From a virus: a stretch of 64,000 bases of DNA. The notes below the pieces were generated by a model. That model did not search any database. It was not told the DNA's origin and saw only the letters and a list, made by a program, of their open reading frames with translations. The position numbers and the translations under genes are program-made. This document shows positions 3 through 54,207 of the stretch, piece by piece; position 1 is the stretch's first letter; each line of letters begins with the position of its first letter. The DNA lies in IMG/VR virus record IMGVR_UViG_3300050015_000276, positions 32,001-96,000 of that record. The stretch is one strand, 5' to 3'.

Positions 3-3000
3 AACGGTACAACCGTAAAACTTTCAGCTACAGTTGATAAACAGGTGGCATCAGAAAAAACAAAAATATTACAAACACAAACATTAACTGTAAATATTCC
101 GGCTAGAGTTTTAAATCTTGGAAAAGCTGACATTTATGCTATTGATGGTGTATGGACAGGTTCTGACAATACTGGAACAAATATTACATCGTGGTTTGTT
201 TTAGATAATGGACAACGAGATAACCGTTATGATTTTGGCACATTGACATTATTACCGGGATATAGTTTACCTAGCACCATTTTTATTCAGTACAAATATT
301 TTTCTCACAGTTCTGGAGATTATTTTAGTGTTAATAGCTATTTAAATTTTGATGCGTCTTTACCTGGTTATATTTCTAGTGCGACCTATTATCCATTAAT
401 TCCATATTATAGTGGATCTAATGGTATACAATTTTCATTACGAGATTGTTATGATTTCCGTCCACGTGTGAATGATTCGGCAACGCCAACAAGTACGATT
501 GCTAATGCCGTAGTACAATCACCACCAATATATGTGACACCAGGAAAATTAGTAAAACCTAATGATGATATCATTTCAGATTTTTCTTATTATCTGGGGC
601 GTATTGACAAAATTTATTTGTCACAGGATGGTTATTTTGAAATAGTCAAAGGAACACCATCATTGACACCTTTGGCACCTCCAGATCCCTCATCGGGTAT
701 GGTTGTGGCCCTTATTGGATATCCACCTTACACATTTACCCCATCAAATGTTTCGGTTAAAACCATTCCCAATAAAGTTTATACAATGGCAAAAATCGGA
801 GATCTTGAAACTCGTATTGCTAATTTGGAATATTATACTGCATTGAATTTACTCGAACAACAAACCGCAAACATGCAAATTATTGATGCCACTACAGGAT
901 TGAATCGTTATCAATCTGGTTTTATAGTGGATAATTTTGTTGATAATTCCGTATCAGATTATACCAATTCGGATTGTAATTTTTCTTTAGATGCTTTAAA
1001 TAAAATTATGCGGCCGAGGTATGACACAAATTCTGTTGCCATGCAATTCGATTCGGGTTTGAGTTCAAATGTGGAACTCAATACACTAAAACCTAATAAT
1101 AACATTATTACTTTGCCGTATACAGAATCGCCAATTGTAACGCAAGACAAAGCATCACGCCAAGAAAATATAAATCCATATAATATTTTCAGTTTTGTTG
1201 GAACAATGACATTAACTCCGGCTACAGATACTTGGGTAAGTACTGTTTATTTGCCTGATATTACTATAACGGATAATACTTTATATGACGCTGCGGCTTC
1301 TCAATTAGCAGCCACAAATACTTTAGGTACTATTTGGGATGCGTGGACAACAGATTGGGTTGGAATACCAGTAACAACATTCAATGCGCCTAATACTAAT
1401 CCAAATAATTTAATAGATCAAAGCCTGGGTAGAACAGTTCAATCAAGAACAGGGACAACAAGATCAGTTATTGCAACAACTGATACCACAACATATCAAT
1501 CAAGAACAGGGACAACAACATCCATTATTAACGTACCGCAAACAACCGTGGCAGACGTATTAGTTAATACGGGGATGGTTCCTTATTGCCGCGGCAATAG
1601 TATTCAATTTACAGCCAAAGGACTTAAACCATTCACACAATTTTGGCCATTCTTTGATATAACACCAGTAAGTGCTTATTGTACACCTTCATCTTTAGTG
1701 AGTGATGCTAATGGTATGGTATCTGGAACATTTAATTTGCCAAATCCTTCAATTACTGGAGATCCTGCATTTAGAACAGGAACTAGAGTATTTAAACTTG
1801 TAAACGATATTAATAATACTATAGCTAATATTACATCATATTGTACAGCTAATTATGTGGCTTCTGGAGTTTTAAATACCGACCAAAACACCGTCACATC
1901 TGTTGGAGTAGCTGAAATACAAACACAATCAGTAACCGATATCAGATCTATTGACAATATAACAAGTGAGCTATATGTGCCACGCGAGCCAAGAACACGT
2001 AATTATTCAGATCCTTTAGCCCAATCATTTTTGGTAAGTACATTGCAAGGTGGATTTTGTGCCACAAGTGTAGATGTGTTTTTTGCAACTAAAGACGCCT
2101 CTATTCCAGTAACGTTACAAATTCGAGAAATGCAAAATGGAACACCAACACAATCGGTTGTTCCGTTTAGTACTGTAGTTTTAAATCCTAGCCAGATCAA
2201 TATTTCGGGTGATGGAAATACAAGTACCACATTTTCCTTTCCTTCGCCTGTGTATTTGCAACAGGGTTCAGAATACGCTATTGTCTTGATGTCCAATAGT
2301 AATAGTTATTTTGTGTGGACCGCATTGATGGGAGATTATGTTTTAAATACTGATGTGTTAATTTCTCAAGTGCCGTATACTGGGTTGTTATTTAAATCTC
2401 AGAATGCTAGTACTTGGGTACCGGCACCCGTACAAGCTTTAAAGTTTACCCTTCGCCGCGCAGTATTTAGTTATGGAGTTCTTGGAACTGCTGTAGTTGA
2501 GAATCCTGTTTTGCCATCAACAGTATTGCCAAATCTCTCATTGATAACTTATAATGGATTGAATGCTGTTAGAGTTAAAACACAAACAGCACATGGTATG
2601 CCTGATGGTAGTTTTGTTACAATTAGTATACCTCCAGGAACTAGTAATTCAAATTGGTCCGCATCTTATAATGGTATTCCAGTTACACAAATAGTTCCAA
2701 CAACTAGTGGTGATTTGAGAAATTCATCGTGGGCATCCGGAATTGCCGATACTACTATTGGTTCTCGAACATATATTGTTAGAAATCCTGAATTAGATAA
2801 TTATACTATTTTTATTATGGATGGTAGTGGTCATCCGGTAAATGCATCATCATCAGGATTTACTGGAGTTTCATTGAATGTAACACAAAATTATCCGTAT
2901 GATGTTATGATGCCAATTGTAACTGAATTGAATTTTTCAGGTACTAATACTAATTATTATGTGAGAGCGATTACAGGAAAGTCTCCCCAAGGAACAAGTT

Positions 3001-12628: not shown

Positions 12629-14221
12629 ATGAGCGCGATTACATATTCACCTCAACAGCAGGCAGTCTTGGATTTTACATCCAAGAATGGCCATGGCAAC
12701 TGCTTAATTACAGCCGTGGCCGGGTCTGGCAAGACTTTCACCCTTATGCAGGCAGTTCCTGGTTTAGAGGGATACATTGCCATTGCGGCTTACAATACAG
12801 CAATTGCCAACGAGATTGAAAGTAAACTCCAAGGAGTTCAGTTACAAGATGGAAGCCGTGTATATGTTGGAACAGTTCATCGGTTTGGACGCAAGGCTTT
12901 GTCTAAGGTTTATCCCAAGGGCAAATTACCTGCCCGTGGTGATAAGTCCAAGATTGACCAGATGATGGCATTGGTTTTCAATCCGAAAACCAAAGAAGTT
13001 GGCGTACCTCAGCATCTCCAGAGTTTTGCGAGGAAGTGTTACAATCTGGCACGTCAACAAGGCGCAGGTGTCTTACCTGAATTCCAGTTTTCCAATCAGG
13101 CAGCATGGCTTGATATGGTTGAACATTTTGATCTCCGTGATGATTTTGCCAATGCAGATGGCGATCTACCTCTGGATGTTGAACAGCTAGTCCGCGATGG
13201 CATTAACTGGGCTTGCCGTCTTATCAAATATGGCATTACAATCTTGGATAAACTTTGGGATTTCGAGGATATGATTTATGCTGTCCTCTACCAGAATCTC
13301 AGGATCGAACCAAACAATTGGGTCCTTGTGGACGAAGTTCAGGATATAAATCCTACTCGGAGAGCCTTGATTAAGAAGATGTTGGCGGTTGGTGGACGTG
13401 CAATCTTTGTTGGAGATCCAAAACAAGCAATATATGGATTTACTGGTGCCGATGCCAAATCATTCGAGAATATCCGAAAAGAATTTGATTGCACGGATTT
13501 GCCGCTCACGTGGTCATTCCGATGTGCAAAGACGATTGTTCGTTTTGTGCAGCAGTGGGTTTCCCATATTGAATCCCATCCTGATGCTCCTGAGGGAGAA
13601 GTGATTCAGACGGATGAACAGGGAATGTGGGAATTGAATCCAAATACAGATGATGCTATCCTTTGCCGCAATAATGCTCCTTTATGCCAGTTATTTTTTG
13701 AATTGTTGAAAAGAGGTATTCCATCTCATGTGGAAGGTAAGGACATTTCAGGAAAGCTACTTAAAATGGCCTCTCGCTGGCCTTCTTTGAAGTCCTTGGT
13801 TGCCCTTGGTGGAAAACTTGAAGAATATAAGGAACGTCAAATTCAAAAGGGATTACAATCTGGACGTGAAGATAAAGCGGAAGAAGTTGCTGATGTTGTG
13901 GATGCTATCCAGGCTGTGATTGCTGGTTTACCTTTTGGAAGCAAAGTTGAAGATCTGAAACGAGTTATCGCGGAAATGTTCGAAGATACCCAGGATGGAA
14001 AGAAACCAAAGAATTTAACACTTACAAGTATTCACCGTTCAAAGGGAAGAGAATGGAATCGTGTATTTTGGTATGGCCGCAATCGTTGGAACCCGAGCAG
14101 CTACGCTCGCCAAAAATGGCAAATGGAGCAAGAAACAAATCTACAATATGTCGCGGGAACTCGGGCGAAGATGACATTGGTGGATGTTAGTGTAGTTATT
14201 CCTCCAAAGAAAATGAGGTAA
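12629..14221 (+). CDS. UvrD/Rep-like SF1 DNA helicase
   Basis: AVAGSGKT, VLVDEVQD, VGDPKQAIYGF, SFRC, SIHRSKGREW and YVAGTRA motifs; leaderless start. Confidence 0.92.
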   Translation: MSAITYSPQQQAVLDFTSKNGHGNCLITAVAGSGKTFTLMQAVPGLEGYIAIAAYNTAIANEIESKLQGVQLQDGSRVYVGTVHRFGRKALSKVYPKGKLPARGDKSKIDQMMALVFNPKTKEVGVPQHLQSFARKCYNLARQQGAGVLPEFQFSNQAAWLDMVEHFDLRDDFANADGDLPLDVEQLVRDGINWACRLIKYGITILDKLWDFEDMIYAVLYQNLRIEPNNWVLVDEVQDINPTRRALIKKMLAVGGRAIFVGDPKQAIYGFTGADAKSFENIRKEFDCTDLPLTWSFRCAKTIVRFVQQWVSHIESHPDAPEGEVIQTDEQGMWELNPNTDDAILCRNNAPLCQLFFELLKRGIPSHVEGKDISGKLLKMASRWPSLKSLVALGGKLEEYKERQIQKGLQSGREDKAEEVADVVDAIQAVIAGLPFGSKVEDLKRVIAEMFEDTQDGKKPKNLTLTSIHRSKGREWNRVFWYGRNRWNPSSYARQKWQMEQETNLQYVAGTRAKMTLVDVSVVIPPKKMR

Positions 14222-14705
14222 GATATTCCGAGGCTCTTTTTAGGGTTTCGGAATTGTCTTTGAATTGCCCCAATCCTCTATTACAAGCATCACATAATAA
14301 TCCTCGGATTGTTCCGGATATATGATTGTGGTCTACGGCTAATTTTTTATGGTTTTGTGGTTTCAAACATATAGCACAGACACCATTTTGTTTGGAAAAC
14401 ATATTATCGTATTCCTCAATAGAAATACCAAACATATTCCTCAGATATTGGTTCCTTTTGGTTCTTTTGTATTTTGGAGTTTTTTCGTATTTCTGTTTAT
14501 AGGCTTTATGTTGCGGAGTTTTAGAATATTCTTTGCTGTATTCTCGTTTACTATCGGAGTTATTATATTCTTTCCGACAAGAGATGCATCCATAATCTCT
14601 GGTATTTTTTAGAGTTGTTCCACAATTTTTACAAGGTTTTCCGTTGTAGGTTTTGGCGCCGGCGGCTTTGGCTTCTTTTCTGGACGAATAAATAGTTTCA
14701 GACAT
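14196..14705 (-). CDS. Endonuclease VII-like (His-Me finger) free-standing homing endonuclease
   Basis: CAIC...LAVDHNH..G.IRGLLC..CN.GLG.FKDN. Start MSETIY has a GGAGGT SD, and a minus-strand TATAAATA lies at 14773-14780. Confidence 0.88.
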   Translation of the reverse strand: MSETIYSSRKEAKAAGAKTYNGKPCKNCGTTLKNTRDYGCISCRKEYNNSDSKREYSKEYSKTPQHKAYKQKYEKTPKYKRTKRNQYLRNMFGISIEEYDNMFSKQNGVCAICLKPQNHKKLAVDHNHISGTIRGLLCDACNRGLGQFKDNSETLKRASEYLTSFSLEE

Positions 14706-14825
14706 TCGCGGTACCTCCGTACCACATTGTTTAGAGGTCAAGTGATACGCAAATATCACTTGACCTCACATATATTTATACAACCTCTATTGACATTCCA
14801 AATAAAATGTGAGATACTTGGGAGT

Positions 14826-14915
14826 ATGTTAAATTTGATGTATGTCGCCGGTACGCGTGCGAAAACCACGTTAGTTGATGTTATAGTTCCTATACCGTTA
14901 AGGAGATACAAATGA
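14826..14915 (+). CDS. 29-aa diverged duplicate of the helicase C-terminus
   Basis: MLNLMYVAGTRAKTTLVDVIVPIPLRRYK versus helicase TNLQYVAGTRAKMTLVDVSVVIPPKKMR. It has its own promoter (TTGACA 14790). Confidence 0.7.
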   Translation: MLNLMYVAGTRAKTTLVDVIVPIPLRRYK

Positions 14916-15117
14916 TAGATGATTTAGAGAAGTTGAAATTGAAAATCCGGGCGATGGGAAAACCAAAATGATTCACGAAGTAGAATGGAAACGGTCACGC
15001 TGGCAAGATTTGATTCACCCCAAAGCGTGGAAATGTTTTGCGGATACTCATAAATCTAATCCGTGGGCAGGACCTTGGTATTGGCGAAGTGTTAAGATTC
15101 ATTAAAGGACAAGCATT

Positions 15118-15321
15118 ATGGCTGAAATTTCTGACGAACGGATTGATGAAATTCTTTATGCTCCTACTGAGGCCTGGATGTTGGTAGAGGATGTCCAGGT
15201 ACTTGCTTCCTCAGTAAAGCAATATAGAGAGTTTATGGAGCGAGAAAGATTAAGATTGGAAAAGGCATTTCAGTCTCTAATCGGAAGAAGGATAAAATAT
15301 GGCGATAATGGTACCCGATAA
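15118..15321 (+). CDS. Hypothetical protein, paralog A
   Basis: DERIDEILYAPTEAWML. Confidence 0.7.
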   Translation: MAEISDERIDEILYAPTEAWMLVEDVQVLASSVKQYREFMERERLRLEKAFQSLIGRRIKYGDNGTR

Positions 15322-15499
15322 ACGGATCGATGAAATTCTCCTTACACCTACTGAATTGTGGATGTTGGAGAAAGATGTCCGCTCACTTGCATTTGAAGTA
15401 AAACGTGATAGGAAGTTTATCCGTGAAATGTTGTTGGACGAAGCGTGCCGGACTACTGGTTTGTTTTCCAGCCGGCCGTCGGAGAATAAGGAGGAATAA
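15308..15499 (+). CDS. Hypothetical protein, paralog B
   Basis: DKRIDEILLTPTELWML. Confidence 0.65.
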   Translation: MVPDKRIDEILLTPTELWMLEKDVRSLAFEVKRDRKFIREMLLDEACRTTGLFSSRPSENKEE

Positions 15500-15519
15500 T
15501 ATGGTACTACGCCAAGATC

Positions 15520-15666
15520 ATGAAATTTTGTTCTGACTTTTCTTGGAATGTAATATATTACATATTGTTGCCATTTAAAGTGGTTACATTCTGGGGATCC
15601 ATAGCTTGTATTGGCTGGTTCCTTTATGCTCTTGGTATATGGATTTGGCCGATCCTTTGGAGTTAA
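15520..15666 (+). CDS. Small Trp-rich membrane protein (not in ORF track)
   Basis: MKFCSDFSWNVIYYILLPF...WIWPILWS, 48 aa. Confidence 0.5.
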   Translation: MKFCSDFSWNVIYYILLPFKVVTFWGSIACIGWFLYALGIWIWPILWS

Positions 15667-15667
15667 T

Positions 15668-15811
15668 ATGCAAAAAGAAATGACACTCTCCGAACATGCA
15701 GAAGCCTGGTGGAGTGACCAAGGTAATATAGTTCCGGAACCATATTCTGAAGAATGGGTGGCTATGTATGTGCAATGGCACACGTATGCCTTTAAGGATT
15801 TCCCAGATTAA
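15668..15811 (+). CDS. Hypothetical protein
   Basis: MQKEMTLSEHAEAWW. Confidence 0.6.
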   Translation: MQKEMTLSEHAEAWWSDQGNIVPEPYSEEWVAMYVQWHTYAFKDFPD

Positions 15812-15850
15812 GTCTTGACATCCATTAAAGTATTTGATACACTTGGGTAT

Positions 15851-16135
15851 ATGCGAGAAGAAATAACACCTGAAGAAATGGACTACTCTATCGAAAAAAT
15901 TCGGGAAATGAGAAAGCGGTGGGGCTTTGACGGTTTCACGGCGGACACATGTGGAAACTGCAAAGCAACCGTTAATGTGCTGAATGACATGCCTGGATGG
16001 TCTTGCCCATGCGGACATTACAATGTCCAGAGTTGGAGTAGTTGTCGGATTCCGCATGATACACCCATGTATGGTCCAAGCCGAGCGAAAATTTTAATGG
16101 CATATGGTGAGGAAATTCCTGGGTTCCGTTTGTGA
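15851..16135 (+). CDS. Hypothetical protein with Cys pairs (leaderless)
   Basis: TTGACA 15815, TACACT 15838. Contains CGNC and CPCG. Confidence 0.65.
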   Translation: MREEITPEEMDYSIEKIREMRKRWGFDGFTADTCGNCKATVNVLNDMPGWSCPCGHYNVQSWSSCRIPHDTPMYGPSRAKILMAYGEEIPGFRL

Positions 16136-16150
16136 TTTGAGGAGAAGACT

Positions 16151-16375
16151 ATGATATCTATTAACATTACCGCCACCGTAGAATGTTCCGATTGTGCAAT
16201 TGAAATGGAAGTGGAATTGACACGGCTGTTTTCCACTTCGAGCAATATGTGGGATGATCGGAATGTTGAGACTCAATTGGTGAAGGCTGGTTGGGAAGAA
16301 AGTGGGGATAGTTGGATTTGTGATTCTTGTGTCCGTTGTGGTGAGGAAGTCTGGGATGAGGATGAGGAAGAGTAA
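16151..16375 (+). CDS. Zn-finger-like acidic protein
   Basis: CSDC and CDSC; GGAG SD. Confidence 0.65.
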   Translation: MISINITATVECSDCAIEMEVELTRLFSTSSNMWDDRNVETQLVKAGWEESGDSWICDSCVRCGEEVWDEDEEE

Positions 16376-16446
16376 ATGACATTCATGTTCTTTCTTTTGT
16401 GCTTTTATTTTGGATTTAATATGGGCGAGATTTGTGAGAGGAACAA

Positions 16447-16782
16447 ATGAATATGACAGCATCATCCAAGGCACGTATTGAAGCGTGGTTTGACGAATTT
16501 ATCCGATCTGATTATGTGACGGGACTAACATCAGATAAGGACTCGGATTTGATTAATCACAGGGAACGTGCGGAAAGATGTTATAATGCCGCGGAATGTG
16601 GCGCCGATGGAAAGACACCTGCCGATTATATTGAGGATTGGCGTGAAGCATTACGTGCAATAATAAATGGACGTCCAGGCCATTATGTACCTGGACGATT
16701 TTTGGATGCTGTGGAAGACCATATTGATTCGGTGGAATCACAGCATGAATTTCAAGGATCTTTATTTCAGGAGATTGGATAA
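16447..16782 (+). CDS. Hypothetical protein
   Basis: 111-aa ORF, GAGG SD. Confidence 0.7.
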   Translation: MNMTASSKARIEAWFDEFIRSDYVTGLTSDKDSDLINHRERAERCYNAAECGADGKTPADYIEDWREALRAIINGRPGHYVPGRFLDAVEDHIDSVESQHEFQGSLFQEIG

Positions 16783-16855
16783 TATCCAGCCCTTCGGGGC
16801 TTGAGCGTGTTATGATAACACTTTCTTGAGTTCAGGTTCTCCAGACCCTCAATAA

Positions 16856-16950
16856 TCGCGTAGGACCGCTCTAGGTTGCATTTGTTAATACGGGCTGTGG
16901 GGTGATAAGGGGTCTACTGGAGTAATGCAACCTAGAGCGGTCCTACGCGA
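16856..16950. repeat. Perfect 27-bp inverted repeat with 41-nt spacer
   Basis: TCGCGTAGGACCGCTCTAGGTTGCATT (16856-16882) and its reverse complement at 16924-16950. Confidence 0.95.
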
Positions 16951-17140
16951 CCTTTGCGCATTTGAATTGTTTATGACGGGGCCTGTGGCCAGCAAATACT
17001 TCGGACATTGCAGATTGTGACAAATTATGGAGTTTACAAAATTGATTTAAGCCAGATATATTTTCTTGATGTCCATCTGGATTGGGTGGATTAACTACGG
17101 TATTTGTAATACGGTAAATATAATAAATATTGGTAGACAT
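16943..17140 (-). pseudogene. Internally deleted GIY-YIG homing endonuclease remnant
   Basis: N-terminal IYYIYRITN is joined directly to PDGH...FCK..L....M..V..G.R..HK.FKC, which matches the C-termini of the 46579 and 53557 endonucleases. Confidence 0.65.
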
Positions 17141-17229
17141 TTTGTGTTCCTTTGTAACACGGAATGTGGTATGTGGTTTATTAGTGTAAGCCACATACCT
17201 ATTTATAGGAAAATAAAGAGGAACAAAAT

Positions 17230-18466
17230 ATGCAACCTACCAGTAGGGAAACGTTTATACAATACTGTAAAGCGAATTTAGGAGATGGAATTATACACAT
17301 CGAACTAACAGACGCCCAGGCTAATAATTGTGTGGATGACGCGCTTACGATGTGGAGAGAATACAGTTATGAGGGAACGCAGCGGACGTACCTTAAGCAC
17401 CAAGTGACGGCTCAAGATATGATTAACCACTGGATACCGTGTGACGATTCCATTATGTCAGTGGTAAGAATAATTCAATGCAACGAGGGAAATTTAAATA
17501 TTTTTGATGTCCGGTATCAACTCCGTTACTGTGTAGCGGCTTAAGGAAGTAATTTCTTAAGCAAACTCCGTTAATTGCTGGAAACTCCTTTCATAGAGGA
17601 CAATCAGCAGCCAAGCCAAGGAAACTCTTGGAAGGTTCAACGACTATGGCAATTGCCAGTAGGGTTCAAGTGGACTCGAAATGCGGAGCATCCAACAATC
17701 ATTGGATGGTGATATAGTCTGATCTCCTAGGTAACTAGGAGAGGTTAAATGGCAACGATTTAACCGCAACATAAATGTTACAAGACTTTTATAATTTCTC
17801 TAACGTTTCCATAAATGTTTGTGGCTTTTTCGAGTAATCGGAAAATGAAAACTCTGTTAATTGCTGGAAACTCCTTTCATAAAGGACAATCAGCAGCCAA
17901 GCCAAGAAAGTAATTCTTGGAAGGTTCAACGACTAGGATTTAATCCGTAGGGAATAGTATTCCCGAAATGCAGAGCATCCAGATTTCCTGGATGGTGATA
18001 TAGTCTGATCTCCTAGGTAACTAGGAGAGATTAAACGGTAACGGTTTAATCGTAACATAAATGGCAACATTACGTCATTACCATGGAGAAACTCCGGCTC
18101 ATTGATTGGCTCATGAACCCGGAACCCACAATATCTTTTGAGCGTCTTGCCAATCGCATCTATGTTAATGCGGATTGGGGATACAGAGTAAAGCAAGGAG
18201 ACTTCTTTGTATTCGAAGTATACCAATGGCTTGATGAACTTTCATATCCACGTATTTGGACAGATAGATGGTTAAAATCATATGCCACCTGTTTGATGCG
18301 GAGAAATTGGGGTTCTAATTTAAAGAAATTTAATGGTATCCAAACCCTTGGTGGTGTCCAATTAAACGGACAACAAATCTATGACGAAGCGATGGATGAA
18401 AAGAAAGATTTAGAAGATATCCTTTATCGTGATTATCAGATACCACCTAGATTGTTTATTGGCTAA
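17230..18466 (+). CDS. gp13: Neck protein gp13; exons 17230-17526, 17778-17812, 18064-18466
   Basis: The spliced product reads NIFDVRYQLR|LQDFYNFSNVSM|QHYVITMEKL and continues to WLKSYAT...WGSNLKKF.G.Q..GGV.LNGQQIYDEA. Confidence 0.92.
17527..17777 (+). ncRNA. Group I intron 1 (ORF-less, IA-like), 251 nt
   Basis: The exon ends in U and the intron ends in G. Core elements: P AATTGCTGGAAA, Q AATCAGCAG, R GTTCAACGACTA, S GATATAGTC. P3 is CTCCGT/GCGGAG and P1 is CCGU/GCGG with a U-G wobble. Confidence 0.9.
17813..18063 (+). ncRNA. Group I intron 2 (ORF-less, IA-like), 251 nt
   Basis: Same P/Q/R/S core. P1 is CCAU/GUGG with a U-G wobble, the intron ends in G, and removal restores the frame (AT+G = Met). 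Confidence 0.9.
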
Positions 18467-18468
18467 TA

Positions 18469-18500
18469 TCTTCAGGACGGAATTAATTCCGTCCTGAAGA
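18469..18500. repeat. Perfect 32-bp palindrome after gp13
   Basis: TCTTCAGGACGGAATT|AATTCCGTCCTGAAGA. Confidence 0.9.
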
Positions 18501-18502
18501 AC

Positions 18503-18562
18503 CCGTTATCATAACGGTCGTTAATTGACATCCTCAATGTTCTTTGTTACCCTTGTTATATG
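18503..18562 (+). promoter_or_regulatory. Type example of the repeated regulatory unit: box, sigma70 promoter, leaderless ATG
   Basis: CCGTTATCATAACGG, then TTGACA at 18525, 17 nt, TACCCT at 18548, and ATG at 18560. Confidence 0.85.
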
Positions 18563-18820
18563 ATGAATAAATCACCCGAAACGAGAATTATTGCGGTCTC
18601 TCCAGGGCCACTTGGAAATTGGTCAAAAACTCGTAAGTTGTTTTGGAGTGGCGATCTTTTGCATATTGAGAGACCTGCCACACATCAAGAATTTATTAAT
18701 TCGCATCGGATTGATCCGGAAACCATTTTTTTGGCCCTAAATCAATTTGATTATTATCTTGTCCACTATGTTGGCAGGATAGATATCGTTGAATGGTTAA
18801 AATTGCGTGATGTATCATGA
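18560..18820 (+). CDS. Hypothetical protein (leaderless)
   Basis: 86-aa ORF. Confidence 0.65.
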   Translation: MMNKSPETRIIAVSPGPLGNWSKTRKLFWSGDLLHIERPATHQEFINSHRIDPETIFLALNQFDYYLVHYVGRIDIVEWLKLRDVS

Positions 18821-19000
18821 CGACCCAAGAACGCATTGCATCTAACAGAGCCATGGAGGCCCGGATAGCTCCTATACTCAAAGCTAAAGCGGCGAAGGAG
18901 AATTTTAATTGTATTAGGACAGAGGTAAAACGAGAAAAGCGTTTATCCCGAATTAATTTTTTGTCTTGACATCCGCAATGTTCTTTGCTATCATCATTAC

Positions 19001-19420
19001 ATGCTAAGCATTGACGCCGAGAAAATTGCCTGGGACCTGATACAACAATACGCTCCAGGCTGGTCATTTGAATTTGACCGAGGCACTCGCCGCTGCGGCT
19101 GTTGCAATTATCGGAAACTCCAGATATCGCTCAGCCTTCAATATGTCCAATTGAATTCCGAGGAATGTGTGCGGAATACCGTTCTGCATGAACTGGCTCA
19201 CGCCCTTGCTGGATTTGCGGCACACCACGGACCTGATTGGCAATGGTGGTGCCGCAAGTTAGGTGCTCGTCCAGAACGCCTGAATACGGAAGCGGTGGTG
19301 ATCTATAATGTATTCGCAGATTGCCAGTGTGGACCGAATACGCACAAGAAAATGCGGATGCCTAAGGGTACACGGATTTGCCTCAGATGCCGCCAAGAAT
19401 TGACTTGGAGAAGGATATAA
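19001..19420 (+). CDS. SprT-like zinc metalloprotease
   Basis: G.C.Y....I.LS, NTVLHELAHAL and HHGPDWQ motifs; leaderless. Confidence 0.85.
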   Translation: MLSIDAEKIAWDLIQQYAPGWSFEFDRGTRRCGCCNYRKLQISLSLQYVQLNSEECVRNTVLHELAHALAGFAAHHGPDWQWWCRKLGARPERLNTEAVVIYNVFADCQCGPNTHKKMRMPKGTRICLRCRQELTWRRI

Positions 19421-36426: not shown

Positions 36427-36599
36427 TAAATTTTCCTAAAATTATATACCATTCCGTGTCCATCAGCAGATTGCATGGTACTCATATCAATTTTAATATA
36501 TCCTAGATTCTTGGGTTTGGGAGTCTTTGGAAGTTTTACTTTCTTCGTAACCTTCTTTTTATTCAAGACTTTTTCGATTTTTTTGGTTGTTTTTGACAT
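36426..36599 (-). CDS. Lys-rich small protein (not in ORF track)
   Basis: MSKTTKKIEKVLNKKKVTKKVKLPKTPKPK..., 57 aa, directly after a minus-strand TTGACATCC-TACAAT promoter (-35 at 36632-36637). Confidence 0.65.
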   Translation of the reverse strand: MSKTTKKIEKVLNKKKVTKKVKLPKTPKPKNLGYIKIDMSTMQSADGHGMVYNFRKI

Positions 36600-36663
36600 T
36601 ACAAATCAATTGTATCATATTCGTGAATGGATGTCAACCCTAAATATTTGTGAGTTTTCTTTT

Positions 36664-37494
36664 ATGTTTTTAGACAATAAATATACCAAAACCTATTACC
36701 GAATCATACATCGTGCCAAAGCCAGGACTAAACCTGAAGGATATACCGAGAAACACCATATCATTCCAAAATGTAAACCTTTATGTGGTCCTAATACTCG
36801 GGAGAATTTAGTAGCACTTACATTTAAGGAGCACTGGGTTTGCCACCATTTATTGCTTAAGATGGTTGAAGGAATTCTAAAATCTAAAATGTATTGTGCT
36901 TTTAAACGTATGGGTCAAACTAATGGAAAACAAGATAAAGTAATAAATTCCAAAATGTTTGAGAGAATAAAAACCGCAAATAGAGCATTATGTTCTGGTA
37001 AAAATAATCCTAGATATGGCAAACATCACTCAGAAGAATCGAAACGAAAAATTAGTGAATCTAATAAAGGGAATAAACCTACAGAAGAACAGAGAAAAAA
37101 ATTAATAGAATCCCATAAAGGTTATGTTCCGTCAGAAGAATCAAAACGAAAAAATAGTGAATCTAATAAAGGCAAACATAATATAAAACGAACTGAAGAA
37201 GGCAAAAGGAATATGTCTTTAGCTCATAAAGGTCTAGATAATCATCAAACTGGAAGAAAACGCTCAGAAGAAACTAAACAAAAATTAATTTTAGCTTGGA
37301 AAAAAAGAAAATTAAAAGGAGAAATTCCTTGGAATAAAGGTGGTAAAAATCTATATTCGGATGAAATCCGAAAGAAAATGTCCGATTCGCATAAAGGAAA
37401 AAAATTATCGGAAGAACAAAAAAAGAAAATATCATTATCTTTATTAGGAAATAAAAGAGCTTTATCCCAGGAAAATAAGAATAAATTATGCTAA
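36664..37494 (+). CDS. HNH homing endonuclease (MobD/MobE-like) with NUMOD3 repeats
   Basis: EKHHIIPKC...N...NLVALT.KEHW.CH motif and HSEESKRKISES repeats; CTAAATA at 36640. Confidence 0.88.
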   Translation: MFLDNKYTKTYYRIIHRAKARTKPEGYTEKHHIIPKCKPLCGPNTRENLVALTFKEHWVCHHLLLKMVEGILKSKMYCAFKRMGQTNGKQDKVINSKMFERIKTANRALCSGKNNPRYGKHHSEESKRKISESNKGNKPTEEQRKKLIESHKGYVPSEESKRKNSESNKGKHNIKRTEEGKRNMSLAHKGLDNHQTGRKRSEETKQKLILAWKKRKLKGEIPWNKGGKNLYSDEIRKKMSDSHKGKKLSEEQKKKISLSLLGNKRALSQENKNKLC

Positions 37495-38519
37495 ATCAAA
37501 ATTTTAATTTCCAAACTAGATTTTCTGAACAAGATCTCTATGAAAATTTAATTATTGAGAGTGTACAAACATATGGAATGGATATACAATATTGTCCCAA
37601 AACTCTCGTTAATTTTGATGCTCTACTGGGTGAGGATAACCAGCGAGCCTTTTTAAAATCCATCACTATAGAAGCTTACCAGGAAAATTTAGATGGATTT
37701 TTTGGCGATAAGAATTTCTTAAATAAACTAGGCCTCAACATTGACAAGGAAGCATCTTTTATTATTGCAAAACGCCGGTTTGATGAAGTTGTTCTTGGAT
37801 TAAATTGGCGGGATTTTTGGAAAGAAACAAATACCTATTCAGTTAATGATGCTGTTCATTATCAAGGTAAGGTGTATACTAATATTTCCGCGGTCCACAA
37901 CTTACAATTTACTTTAAGTGGTGTTTCTGGTATTTTTACTCAATTCGATCCTATTATAGGGTTGACTAGCGGTGCAACCGGTTTAGTTAGTAGTTTCGAT
38001 CCACTAACAAATATTCTAATATTGACTGACGTGGTAGGAACTTTTGTTGTTTCTGAAACAATAAACGATACATTTGGAAGTTTTCCTTCTCCAGAATCAA
38101 TTATAACAGACAGTTCGATTAATTTTATATTTCCTGGTACAGGAATAATAAATACAATCACAACCGGAACAAATATTTCACCTTTGAGCGATACAACACA
38201 TTGGAAAGTAATGCAACAGGTTCGTCCAATGGAAGGTGATTTGATTTATTTACCTATCACTGGAGATATATTTGAAATTTTATTTGCAGATCATGAAGAA
38301 GTATTTTATCAATTAGGTAAAATATATGTTTGGAAAATTACCGCAGAGAAATTCCGTTATTCACATGAAACTCTTGATACTGGTATTGATGCGATAGATG
38401 AAATAGCTACTCAATTAGAAAATGATGATAGTCTTATTAACGATCCTCTCGCGGACAATGATAATATTAGTGATTCTGTTGAAGCCTTTCTGAATTTGGA
38501 CAATAATCGACCCTTTTAA
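37488..38519 (+). CDS. gp14: Neck protein gp14 with internal domain insertion
   Basis: EQDLYENLIIESVQTYG.D..Y.P, KRRFDE, RPMEGDLIYLP and FYQLGK..V..I..E.F.YS.E..DTG motifs. Confidence 0.9.
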   Translation: MLNQNFNFQTRFSEQDLYENLIIESVQTYGMDIQYCPKTLVNFDALLGEDNQRAFLKSITIEAYQENLDGFFGDKNFLNKLGLNIDKEASFIIAKRRFDEVVLGLNWRDFWKETNTYSVNDAVHYQGKVYTNISAVHNLQFTLSGVSGIFTQFDPIIGLTSGATGLVSSFDPLTNILILTDVVGTFVVSETINDTFGSFPSPESIITDSSINFIFPGTGIINTITTGTNISPLSDTTHWKVMQQVRPMEGDLIYLPITGDIFEILFADHEEVFYQLGKIYVWKITAEKFRYSHETLDTGIDAIDEIATQLENDDSLINDPLADNDNISDSVEAFLNLDNNRPF

Positions 38520-46578: not shown

Positions 46579-47286
46579 ATGGAATATTATACGTATATTT
46601 GGTATCGAACAGATAAAGAAAAACCTGAACCATTTTATGTTGGAAAAGGTAAAGGAAAGAGATTCGAGAAATACCACAATAAACATTTTGACAATATTGT
46701 GAAGAAACATGAAAAATTAGGAATTAAACCTCTTGTAGGTTTTTATTATAAAGGTCCGTCGGAAGAAATGGCATATAAAAACGAAATGGCATTAATTGCA
46801 AAATTCGGAAGAAAATGTTTGGGTACTGGGCCTTTAATTAATTTAACTGAAGGAGGAGAAGGTGGTTGTCCTTCAGGTGATCAACATTGGAATTATGGTA
46901 AAAAAGCTTCTAAGGAAATGCGAAAAAAATTAAGTTTGGCGCATCTAGGTATTAAACCTTCTGAAGATTCAAAGAAAAAGAATAGTGAATCTAATAAAGG
47001 CAAACATAATTTTAAACACACTAAAGAATCTATAGAAAAAATGAGCCGAAACCGAAAGGGTATTGAAGCTTGGAATAAAGGTAAAACCTCTGAAGTTATT
47101 TCTAATGTTAAATCTCAAAATTGGGTAGTTATTTTTCCTGATAGTCACGAAGAACAAATTAAAAATCTAACAAAATTTTGTAAAGAATATAAATTAAATC
47201 AAGGAAAAATGAGTTCAGTTGCTTCAGGAAAAAGAAAGCAACATAAAGGATTTAAATGCAAAAAACTTGAGGTGATCGATGCCTAA
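46579..47286 (+). CDS. GIY-YIG (Seg-like) homing endonuclease with NUMOD3
   Basis: YYTYIW...PFYVGKG, G.L.NLT.GGEG motifs; late promoter at 46521. Confidence 0.88.
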   Translation: MEYYTYIWYRTDKEKPEPFYVGKGKGKRFEKYHNKHFDNIVKKHEKLGIKPLVGFYYKGPSEEMAYKNEMALIAKFGRKCLGTGPLINLTEGGEGGCPSGDQHWNYGKKASKEMRKKLSLAHLGIKPSEDSKKKNSESNKGKHNFKHTKESIEKMSRNRKGIEAWNKGKTSEVISNVKSQNWVVIFPDSHEEQIKNLTKFCKEYKLNQGKMSSVASGKRKQHKGFKCKKLEVIDA

Positions 47287-52028: not shown

Positions 52029-53381
52029 ATGATTACCACAGATAAGCTCGTTGACAAATGGGCCGAGGTTCTTGACGACGAAAATTTTGGCAAATTGACT
52101 AATCGCCACAAACGCCGTGTAGTTGCGACGGTTATGGAGAATCAGCAAGTTGAGTTTGAAAAGACTCGCCAAATTCTTTCAGAGTCCGCTCCAACCCTTA
52201 GTACAGGTGCTGGAATTGCAAACTTTGACCCCATTCTAATTTCATTGGTACGCCGGGCTATGCCCAACTTGATTGCTTATGATGTTTGCGGTGTTCAACC
52301 AATGGTTGGACCAACCGGACTCATTTTCGCAATGAAATCGCGTTATCAATCCAAACAAGGTACAGAAGCTCTATTCAATGAAGCGAATACCGCTTTCACT
52401 GGACAAGATCCTAATGGACCTTATGGCCAAACTTGGGGTGCGCCAAATTCAACCGGTGCAACACAAACATTCTCAGGTGCAACACCTCATGCCGGTACTG
52501 ATCCTGTAGCAACTGGATTTCCTCCAACCGCTTCTGGTTATACAACTGGCCGTGCGATGCGTACTCAAGAAGCCGAAGCATTAGGCGATGGTGTGGGAGC
52601 AGACTTTAATCAAATGGCATTCAGCATTGATAAAATTTCTGTCGAAGCAAAGACCCGTGCATTAAAAGCTGAGTATTCTGTAGAAGTTGCTCAAGACTTA
52701 AAAGCTATCCATGGTCTTGATGCCGAAACCGAATTAGCTAATATTCTTTCCGCTGAAATCTTAACCGAAATCAATAGAGAGATTATCCGCACAATCTATT
52801 ATATTGCTGTCCCTGGCGCCGCACAAACTACAAATCCTGGTGTGTTTGACTTGGATGTAGATGCAAATGGTCGTTGGTCAGTTGAGAAGTTTAAGGGTTT
52901 GATGTTCCAAGTGGAACGCGAAGCCAATGCGATTGCGAAGGCTACACGTAGAGGCCGTGGGAATGTTATCATCTGTTCTAGTGACGTGGCAAGCGCATTA
53001 GTAATGGCTGGTAAATTAGATTATACTCCTGCGCTTCAGAATGATTTAACTGTTGACGATACTGGCAATACCTTTGCTGGTGTATTAAATGGTAGATTCC
53101 GCGTATATATCGATCCTTACTTCGGTAATGGTGGTGTTAATGAGGAATTCTTATTGGTAGGATATAAGGGCGCCAATGCATACGACGCGGGCCTTTTTTA
53201 TTGTCCGTATGTACCCCTACAATTATTCCGCGCTCAGGATCCACACAGCTTCCAGCCAAAAATTGCATTCAAAACCCGTTACGCAGTTGCTCCAAATCCA
53301 TTCTGGTCGGATGCTAATGCCACTCTTCAAGCTAATAGTTCCGCTTATTATAGAATGATCCGAATTATAAATCTTCTATAA
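52029..53381 (+). CDS. gp23: Major capsid protein gp23
   Basis: ISLVRRAMPNLIAYDVCGVQPM.GPTGLIFAM, LKAEYS.E.AQDLKAIHG and FYCPYVPL motifs. Confidence 0.97.
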   Translation: MITTDKLVDKWAEVLDDENFGKLTNRHKRRVVATVMENQQVEFEKTRQILSESAPTLSTGAGIANFDPILISLVRRAMPNLIAYDVCGVQPMVGPTGLIFAMKSRYQSKQGTEALFNEANTAFTGQDPNGPYGQTWGAPNSTGATQTFSGATPHAGTDPVATGFPPTASGYTTGRAMRTQEAEALGDGVGADFNQMAFSIDKISVEAKTRALKAEYSVEVAQDLKAIHGLDAETELANILSAEILTEINREIIRTIYYIAVPGAAQTTNPGVFDLDVDANGRWSVEKFKGLMFQVEREANAIAKATRRGRGNVIICSSDVASALVMAGKLDYTPALQNDLTVDDTGNTFAGVLNGRFRVYIDPYFGNGGVNEEFLLVGYKGANAYDAGLFYCPYVPLQLFRAQDPHSFQPKIAFKTRYAVAPNPFWSDANATLQANSSAYYRMIRIINLL

Positions 53382-53556: not shown

Positions 53557-54207
53557 ATGCAACCAAACATACAAAACTCATTCTTAAATAACAAATACAC
53601 TAAAACTTACATTCGTATCACAGAACGTGCCAAGGACAGGATAATTCCTTTTGGTTACACCGAAAAACATCATATAATTCCAAAATGTAAACCATTTTGT
53701 GGACCAAACACAAAAGAAAATCTGGTCTCCTTATCATTCAAAGAACATTTGGTCTGTCATCATCTGTTACTGAAAATGTGTAAAACAAAATTAGAGAAAA
53801 TGAAAATGTATTATGCATTTAACCGAATGGGGCAAACAAGTTCAAATAATAAAAGGATTATTAATCTTAAATCTTATGACAGAATTAAGACTTATTATTA
53901 TGAATTAGGTTTAGGACGAATACCTTGGAATAAAGGTAAAAAAGGTAATAACCTTAAAAAAGAAACATGTATAAAAATGTCTTTGAGCAGAATTGGAAAT
54001 AAAAATAATTTAGGAAATTTTTGGTCTAAAGAAACTTATAACAAAAATTGTTGCAATTATAAAATAACTTTTCCCGACGGACACACCGAAATTGTAAATA
54101 ATTTGAGGCAGTTTTGTAAATATAATAATTTAAATTCAGGAAATATGAATCAAGTAGCTTTAGGTAATTTTAAACAACATAAAGGTTTTAAAGCCACCAA
54201 ATTATGA
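53557..54207 (+). CDS. HNH homing endonuclease (paralog of 36664)
   Basis: EKHHIIPKCKP.CGPNT.ENLV.L.FKEH.VCHHLL motif. Confidence 0.88.
   Translation: MQPNIQNSFLNNKYTKTYIRITERAKDRIIPFGYTEKHHIIPKCKPFCGPNTKENLVSLSFKEHLVCHHLLLKMCKTKLEKMKMYYAFNRMGQTSSNNKRIINLKSYDRIKTYYYELGLGRIPWNKGKKGNNLKKETCIKMSLSRIGNKNNLGNFWSKETYNKNCCNYKITFPDGHTEIVNNLRQFCKYNNLNSGNMNQVALGNFKQHKGFKATKL

Follow-up and report, generated by a model that had tools for sequence, protein, structure and literature searches.

How can a phage obtain an intact neck protein from a gene that is interrupted twice at points separated by 35 coding nucleotides, and how did two such similar interruptions come to lie so close together? These questions are raised by gp13, which is present once in the genome of an uncultivated T4-like phage and encodes its neck protein (head-tail adaptor). 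The phage is represented by a complete virus record of 179,687 bp with terminal repeats (IMG/VR record IMGVR_UViG_3300050015_000276), of which bases 32001-96000, i.e. a stretch of 64,000 nucleotides called the window in the following, were analysed here. Coordinates are those of the window unless another sequence is named. The explanation that we prefer, and to which we assign a probability of roughly 0.85, is that two IA-type ribozymes in gp13 both splice, that their intron family was spread by a neighbouring free-standing homing endonuclease, and that the pair was assembled from two members of this family.

A preliminary description of the locus, made from the letters alone, had proposed two group I introns without open reading frames (ORFs) around a 35-nt micro-exon and had named a run with group I models as a check. 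In this run the Rfam model RF00028 matched at 17517-17741 (103.5 bits, E 1e-25) and at 17803-18027 (95.9 bits, E 2e-23), in both cases over its full length (model positions 1-253) and at about twice the gathering score of 50. No further RF00028 match was found in the 179,687-bp genome. The two introns are equal in length, as had been stated, and the three long blocks quoted in the preliminary description show no differences when the two introns are aligned. There is no intron-encoded protein, the only internal ORFs being of 45 and 32 amino acids (aa). An in-frame TAA is met 5 codons into intron 1 and 8 codons into intron 2; such an early in-frame stop past the 5' splice site is usual for working phage introns.

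Folding of the single sequences gave the same architecture for both introns: P1, P2, P3-P6, two hairpins at the P7.1/P7.2 position, P8, P9 and P9.1, with z-scores of -5.3 (intron 1) and -5.7 (intron 2). The pairings were then evaluated in a covariation alignment of 7 introns from five phages. Standard pairs were formed in 97.7% of the cells, as compared to 30-43% when the partners were slid by 1-3 columns, and double-sided changes occurred in 34 of the 69 pairs, as compared to 3-14 in the slid controls. None of the 500 shuffles reached any of the covariation measures, and RNAalifold counted 36 compensatory pairs out of 70. Double changes are present in P3, P5, P6, P8, P9 and P9.1. The P4 and P7 pairs are complementary and invariant, which makes them neutral as evidence for the structure.

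The P1 helix, which defines the 5' splice site, is 94% paired in the same alignment. At one of its pairs, 4 introns have G-C and 3 have A-U, and it is precisely this compensated pair that separates the guides of introns 1 and 2. In other words, each intron has a guide of its own for its own exon, CCGU/GCGG for intron 1 and CCAU/GUGG for intron 2, with a U opposite a G at the cut and a terminal G in both, just as the preliminary description had it. The rule extends to the whole family, i.e. all 8 introns follow a U and terminate in G. In both folds the P7.1/P7.2 hairpins lie between P7 and P3', within an insertion relative to the Rfam model, and we judge introns 1 and 2 to be IA-type group I introns bearing P7.1/P7.2, an assignment that does not separate IA2 from IA1 or IA3.

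The host gene had been named as gp13, and both outer exons bear this out. PHROG 211 (head-tail adaptor Ad2) is matched by exon 1 (E 7e-13, profile positions 723-812) and by exon 3 (E 1e-16, profile positions 844-964), and the protein as a whole matches the PHROG 211 / neck protein profile. Exons 1 and 3 are also about 35-42% identical to annotated gp13 neck proteins of T4-like phages in tblastn comparisons. The Pfam family PF26809 is precomputed for all gp13 relatives; a Pfam search of the separate gp13 exons gave no match above the cut-off.

Joining the three exons results in a continuous reading frame of 735 nt that encodes a gp13 protein of 244 aa. This product aligns without gaps to the intronless 244-aa gp13 proteins of related phages at 80-87% identity (87% to the relative L052; relatives are designated by L numbers here), so the proposed junctions restore the frame exactly. 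A six-frame search of the genome with the L052 protein returned two pieces only, residues 1-100 (exon 1, 84% identical) and residues 110-244 (exon 3, 87% identical), and no second copy of gp13. The 9 residues absent between the two matches are supplied by the micro-exon. The situation is analogous with the gp13 of the T4-like phage Melnitz, where the 13 residues between the matched parts are exactly what the micro-exon and the split Met codon supply. The micro-exon encodes the 11 residues given for it in the preliminary description, plus two bases of the Met codon. In the intronless relative L047 the DNA runs uninterrupted through the two points of insertion, and the encoded residues are unchanged, all differences being synonymous, which at the level of DNA confirms both predicted junctions to the nucleotide. 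The boundary of intron 2 is unique. That of intron 1 could slide by one base, and its end was placed at 17777 because the introns terminate in G.

Translation of the alternative products indicates that two splicing events are needed for gp13, as had been proposed. Skipping of the micro-exon shifts the frame and leads to a stop 13 codons downstream, and removal of a single intron, whichever it is, likewise leads to early stops. We envisage that the gp13 precursor transcript carries two ORF-less group I ribozymes, that the guide of each would pair with the four bases at the end of the exon preceding it and form a U-G wobble at the cut, and that each intron would be excised by two guanosine-initiated transesterifications. 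With both introns spliced out and the micro-exon retained, the 244-aa gp13 would be produced.

The decayed state of the endonuclease next to gp13, which is described below, might suggest that the introns too are decayed relics that do not splice, gp13 being then a pseudogene or made in some other way. This is hard to reconcile with gp13 being single-copy in a complete 180-kb genome and with its exons being intact and 84-87% identical to the intronless L052. The high, full-length RF00028 scores, the compensatory nature of the stem differences between the introns and the early in-frame stops, which resemble those of working phage introns, point in the same direction. We consider such a relic extremely improbable. 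The features of the locus, together with the endonuclease genes discussed later, are collected in Table 1.

Table 1. Coordinates of gp13, its two introns and associated features in the window.
Feature	Coordinates	Strand	Remarks
gp13 exon 1	17230..17526	+	99 codons; last base is the U of the 5' splice site
Group I intron 1 (site 1)	17527..17777	+	251 nt, terminal G 17777; RF00028, fold, covariation
Intron 1 parts	guide GCGG 17536-17539 : exon CCGU 17523-17526; P7 strands 17642-17646, 17715-17719	+	
gp13 exon 2 (micro-exon)	17778..17812	+	35 nt, i.e. 11 codons and 2 bases of a Met codon
Group I intron 2 (site 2)	17813..18063	+	251 nt, terminal G 18063; RF00028, fold, covariation
Intron 2 parts	guide GUGG 17821-17824 : exon CCAU 17809-17812; P7 strands 17931-17935, 18001-18005	+	
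gp13 exon 3	18064..18466	+	first base finishes the Met codon; then 133 codons and stop
Direct repeat, copy 1	17770..17779	+	straddles the intron 1 / exon 2 junction
Direct repeat, copy 2	17810..17819	+	straddles the exon 2 / intron 2 junction; part of intron 2 P1
Homing endonuclease remnant	16943..17194	-	83 aa; free-standing, middle deleted; 36 nt upstream of gp13
Homing endonuclease, HNH+NUMOD3	36475-37494	+	free-standing; directly before gp14
gp14	37488-38519	+	343 aa
Homing endonuclease, GIY-YIG-like	46579-47286	+	free-standing; virion-gene region
Homing endonuclease, HNH	53557-54207	+	free-standing; after ORF 52029-53381
Endonuclease VII-like ORF	14196-14759	-	PHROG 307, E 1e-31; overlaps the end of the helicase gene
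Helicase gene	12629-14221		

The question of how the pair arose was approached through related phages. Since gene callers split an intron-bearing gp13, relatives were sought by comparing the ORF of exon 3 with proteins of similar length, in addition to a metagenome scan. The exon-3 search found C-terminal gp13 fragments at 65-79% identity, and their contigs were examined. In every intron-bearing relative gp13 is broken by gene callers into two or three 'hypothetical' ORFs. All members of the intron family were detected by the Rfam model.

The relatives form a conspicuous series. There is no intron in L047, L049, L050/51, L052 and L053; L039/L040/L057 and L054 have an intron at site 1 only and L048 at site 2 only; L044/45/46 have one only at site 3, located 7 nt past site 2. 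L041/42/43 have two introns, at site 1 and at a site 0 that lies 12 nt before it, leaving a 12-nt micro-exon, and the window has introns at sites 1 and 2, with the 35-nt micro-exon between them. The four sites span 54 nt within the longest protein-invariant stretch of gp13, and the predicted gp13 products of all alleles are 244-245 aa long. The 12-nt micro-exon was located at 2783-2794 of L041, between the introns of sites 0 and 1, and consists of four codons. Its skipping would be an in-frame deletion of 4 residues, unlike the skipping of the 35-nt exon in the window.

A further search added seven intronless clusters of full-length gp13 proteins (63-79% identity), and more than half of the related gp13 alleles are without any intron. 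Both sub-clades of gp13 include intron-bearing as well as empty alleles. RF00028 was absent from 28 more distant IMG/VR gp13 loci (33-57% identity), i.e. introns are seen only in the closer clade, the one reached by the split-ORF protein searches. An exact 31-nt pattern from the intron core had no match in IMG/VR.

This distribution bears on a functional interpretation of the introns, according to which they were co-opted as a regulatory gate that ties the supply of neck protein, and thereby head-tail joining, to the GTP level or to the state of translation. The idea of a 'molecular switch' has been proposed for phage introns (PMC11878797), and two obligatory splicing events would make such a gate sharper. 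But the prevalence of intronless alleles means that the gate would be dispensable, and a patchy distribution is what fits selfish elements; a regulatory role of this kind therefore appears quite improbable to us.

The preliminary description had suggested that one intron was duplicated to a site 35 nt away and that its guide was re-tuned. One part of this suggestion stands, as the twins belong to one family and the re-tuning of the guide occurs throughout that family (the G-C and A-U alternatives mentioned above). The duplication itself fared less well. The two introns are 78% identical overall, and the identity is distributed very unevenly along the sequence: 92% in P3-P6 and 100% in P7'-P9, as compared to 51% in P1-P2 and 32% in P7.1-P7.2. 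The closest overall relative of intron 1 is the site-2 intron of L048 (85%), and that of intron 2 is the site-1 intron of L039 (81%). The P7.1-P7.2 cassette of intron 1 is of a type found also in L041, L054 and L048 (sites 0, 1 and 2), whereas that of intron 2 is found also in L039 and L044 (sites 1 and 3). The intron family is thus a mosaic whose members do not group by site, which argues against a simple local duplication.

Copying of a resident intron in place, followed by the change of one base in the guide, would readily account for the near identity of the cores and the exactly equal lengths. It would also account for a derived T in the 3' tail that the twins share, where all six other introns have C, and for guides that differ by a single compensated pair. 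On the other hand, the P7.1-P7.2 segments that are so different between the twins are 77-86% identical to those of introns at other sites in other phages, the P1-P2 regions of the twins are scarcely more than half identical, the closest overall relatives lie elsewhere, and each of the two sites is occupied on its own in other alleles. Duplication in place seems to us unlikely. The sequence comparisons favour two acquisitions, or a recombination between a site-1 and a site-2 allele, followed by homogenisation of the core. In terms of the preferred explanation, the pair in the window was probably assembled from two family members, and the catalytic core was then partly homogenised.

It is a separate question how one family came to use four neighbouring sites. 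One route is reverse splicing, in which intron RNA enters the gp13 mRNA at a guide match of 4-6 bases and is then fixed by reverse transcription and recombination; it would be compatible with endonuclease-driven spread at a given site. The exon sequences are suggestive in this respect. Sites 0 and 1 both follow UCCGU and both introns have the guide GCGG; site 2 follows UCCAU, which differs by one base for which the guide change compensates, and site 3 follows ACAU, where the guide is GUGU. Reverse splicing requires just 4-6 complementary bases (PMC3984707), and the lack of grouping by site is what one would expect from it. However, any functional intron must match its exon, so the guide match is not evidence of the route, and illegitimate repair after endonuclease cuts could also shift introns by a few bases. 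The reverse transcriptase that the pathway requires is unaccounted for, no genome search for one having been made, and the literature support for the pathway is circumstantial rather than directly experimental (PMC3984707). We regard reverse splicing as a possible, if doubtful, source of the new sites.

The spread of the introns between phages is illuminated by the DNA just upstream of gp13. The 83-aa ORF located there matches the HNH-endonuclease PHROG 2081 (E 8e-6) through its C-terminal 40 residues and had no significant match in Pfam. Its C-terminal 44 aa are 48% identical to an endonuclease at the same location in L041 (E 4e-14), and its N-terminal 18 residues are 72% identical to a GIY-YIG endonuclease at the same location in L057 (E 2e-7). 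The ORF is thus a GIY-YIG-type endonuclease with an internal deletion that has kept its N-terminal start and the C-terminal DNA-binding module. The slot holds an intact homing endonuclease in both of these relatives, 253 aa long and of HNH type in L041 (PHROG 655, E 4e-22), and 219 aa long and of GIY-YIG/NUMOD3 type in L057, which is the upstream part of an L039-type phage. L044-46 have a decayed endonuclease that resembles the one in the window. In L054 an HNH endonuclease homologue is found in two frames (1200-1795 of that contig, minus strand) that overlap near residue 101, which could be a frameshift or an assembly error.

No endonuclease similarity was found upstream of the intronless gp13 of L049, L050 and L052 (1.4-2.1 kb examined), or upstream of the likewise intronless gp13 of L059 (574 nt) and L058 (290 nt examined). 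Altogether, an upstream endonuclease or its remnant accompanies 5 of the 5 intron-bearing allele types for which upstream sequence is available, versus 0 of 5 intronless ones. The window and L049 have unrelated upstream ORFs, and the upstream intergenic DNA aligned too poorly with the intronless relatives to set the boundary of the endonuclease insertion. The position of an invariant ATAAATA motif that resembles a T4 late promoter was also recorded: it lies at most about 10 nt from the gp13 start in L049, L050 and L052, and about 100 nt upstream of gp13, within the endonuclease remnant, in the window (17122-17129).

The exon sequences around the sites show a pattern of their own. Over the 75 nt of a protein-invariant hot spot, 18 positions distinguish the window from L052 and L049, its closest relatives at the protein level, and just 9-10 distinguish it from L047 and L039. 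The 17 nt around the junction are identical in all site-1 alleles, whereas the empty alleles vary at synonymous positions. Such a distribution of exon differences would fit co-conversion during break repair, of which it is typical.

These observations can be accommodated by trans (collaborative) homing, the hallmark of which, a free-standing endonuclease beside the host gene of an ORF-less intron, is present here. According to our explanation one intron family, found in a clade of uncultivated phages, occupies four positions in the protein-invariant part of gp13. The introns, having no endonuclease of their own, would most likely have been carried between phages by the repair of double-strand breaks, and the break would have been made by the free-standing homing endonuclease just upstream of gp13, which in this genome has decayed to the 83-aa remnant. 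The best documented precedent is that of phage T4, where the nrdB intron owes its mobility to mobE, a neighbouring gene acting in trans (PMC2790892), and collaborative homing has been reviewed (PMC3984707).

Several points weigh against this explanation. Splicing, as well as its order and efficiency, is deduced from the sequence, and so is the presumed endonuclease target in gp13. The IA subgroup was judged by the P7.1/P7.2 hairpins and by the likeness to phage introns, not by subgroup-specific models. The link between endonuclease and introns compares 5 allele types with 5 others that are phylogenetically non-independent, and two of the intronless loci give just 290-574 nt of upstream sequence. 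Moreover, a 67-residue HNH-like match was found in the intronless L059 at 1260-1457 (plus strand), covering the end of gp13 and beyond (E 1e-5), so pieces of endonucleases are not restricted to intron-bearing alleles. Part of the sharing in the exon flanks could be explained by the constraints that P1 and P10 impose. Finally, break-repair homing puts an intron copy at an unchanged position and leaves the origin of the four sites unexplained.

A more speculative extension, which we advance tentatively and consider less likely than not, addresses this last point. The 54-nt stretch may be the recognition region of alternating HNH and GIY-YIG endonucleases, in which case the hopping of introns to guide-compatible positions would ride on the repair and would at the same time give immunity. 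If this were true, sites 0 and 1, alike in their five exon bases and in their guide, would record a natural switching of intron site, possibly via reverse splicing. To our knowledge, direct evidence for intron site-switching in a protein-coding phage gene has been lacking so far.

The three other free-standing homing endonuclease genes listed in Table 1 lie in the virion-gene region and are all similar to the L041 endonuclease, and the C-terminal DNA-binding module of the latter is common to the GIY-YIG-like gene, the HNH gene after ORF 52029-53381 and the remnant upstream of gp13. The endonuclease VII-like ORF that abuts the helicase gene is in keeping with a heavy colonisation of the genome by homing elements. 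We also note that gp13 lies 20 kb away from gp14, between the UvrD-like helicase gene and a SprT-like gene (12629-19420). In the T4-like phages Melnitz and P-SSM7 gp13 adjoins gp14, and the displaced position is common to the relatives L045, L047 and L057. A six-frame search had suggested that gp14 might be split as well; this was ruled out, as there is no stop and no intron signal. The gene is one continuous ORF with an in-frame insertion of about 138 residues in comparison to the gp14 of Melnitz.

The twin arrangement may carry risks of its own. The 10-nt direct repeat that had been noticed on the two sides of the micro-exon, CATAAATGTT, is indeed there, beginning at 17770 and again at 17810 and nowhere else in the window. 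By chance 0.36 copies would be expected, and two or more copies anywhere were seen in 6 of 100 shuffles, the 40-nt spacing not being required. As a result of the repeat, a copy of the last eight bases of intron 1 stands at the start of intron 2, and this could mislead the choice of the 3' site of intron 1 or of the 5' site of intron 2. A second risk lies at the DNA level. Introns 1 and 2 have identical blocks of up to about 40 nt, spaced by 286 nt, and recombination between these blocks could leave one hybrid intron, delete the micro-exon and shift the frame. The core differences between the twins include a compensated P3 pair, C-G in one and U-A in the other, so a hybrid ribozyme that takes its 5' half from intron 1 and its 3' half from intron 2 would be mismatched in P3.

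When Tetrahymena introns were engineered in tandem, skipping of the middle exon was avoided only if P1, P10 and peripheral elements had been made different (PMC10136302). The combination seen in gp13, i.e. the same core with different guides and a different periphery, would be the pattern expected from selection against lethal skipping. It is for these engineered Tetrahymena pairs only that the prevention of lethal skipping by diversified guides and peripheral helices has been shown (PMC10136302).

Group I introns of phages are known mostly from genes of DNA metabolism, the one classic example in which similar twins flank a tiny exon being orf142 of phage Twort. This is described as a tail tube gene with several ORF-less introns of IA2 type, of which I2 and I3 are highly similar and flank a 23-nt exon, an arrangement that allows exon skipping (PMC10136302, PMC11878797). 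The likeness to gp13 is close, in that a gene for a virion structural component contains similar ORF-less introns with a very short exon between them. There are also differences. The host gene is the tail tube gene of a herellevirus in one case and the gp13 neck gene of a T4-like phage in the other; the exon has 23 nt there and 35 nt here, where its skipping shifts the frame; the gp13 twins diverge in P1, P2, P7.1-7.2 and P9.1; and the four-site population series with an adjacent free-standing endonuclease is seen here. At the sequence level, the intron cores of the window are about 76% identical (blastn) to Twortvirinae phages, and the core match in phage JS1 is located just past the genes of the tail sheath and a virion structural protein. 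More generally, the cores are about 75-77% identical to introns of the Vequintavirus terminase and of Twortvirinae, Bacillus and Campylobacter phages.

Essential phage genes with two or three group I introns each have been described before, and exon skipping was seen in SIOphi (PMC11878797). The DNA polymerase and terminase genes of Bastillevirinae and the terminase gene of Vequintavirus are comparable multi-intron genes (PMC11878797); in RudolfGeigy the annotated terminase consists of three pieces, and the intron core there shares 76% identity with that of the window. However, the introns in these groups have an average length of about 800 nt and mostly contain endonuclease ORFs, and the host genes belong to DNA metabolism or packaging. 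The papers that we consulted describe no comparable cluster of four sites within 54 nt. Outside phages, the 23S rRNA gene of Coxiella burnetii has two group I introns that flank a 34-nt exon, with observed skipping (PMC10136302); it differs in being a bacterial rRNA gene whose introns are of different subgroups (IB2 and IA3) and not of one family.

As regards mobility, the closest parallel is T4 mobE/nrdB and collaborative homing in general, where an HNH or GIY-YIG gene adjoins a gene with an intron that is not mobile by itself, and the intron is inherited via break repair triggered in trans (PMC2790892, PMC3984707). The gp13 system differs in that cleavage of gp13 by its endonucleases is putative, that two catalytic families alternate in the slot, and that the intron positions vary over 54 nt instead of being confined to one fixed site. 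The series of alleles with none, one or two introns and with micro-exons of 35 and 12 nt makes the route to new sites testable, i.e. reverse splicing versus endonuclease-linked repair, and also bears on whether the introns protect against the neighbouring endonuclease. In conclusion, multi-intron phage genes, including a structural gene with similar introns around a tiny exon, were already established; the novelty lies in the gene that hosts the introns, in the lineage of the phage and in a polymorphic series of four sites beside an endonuclease at different stages of decay.

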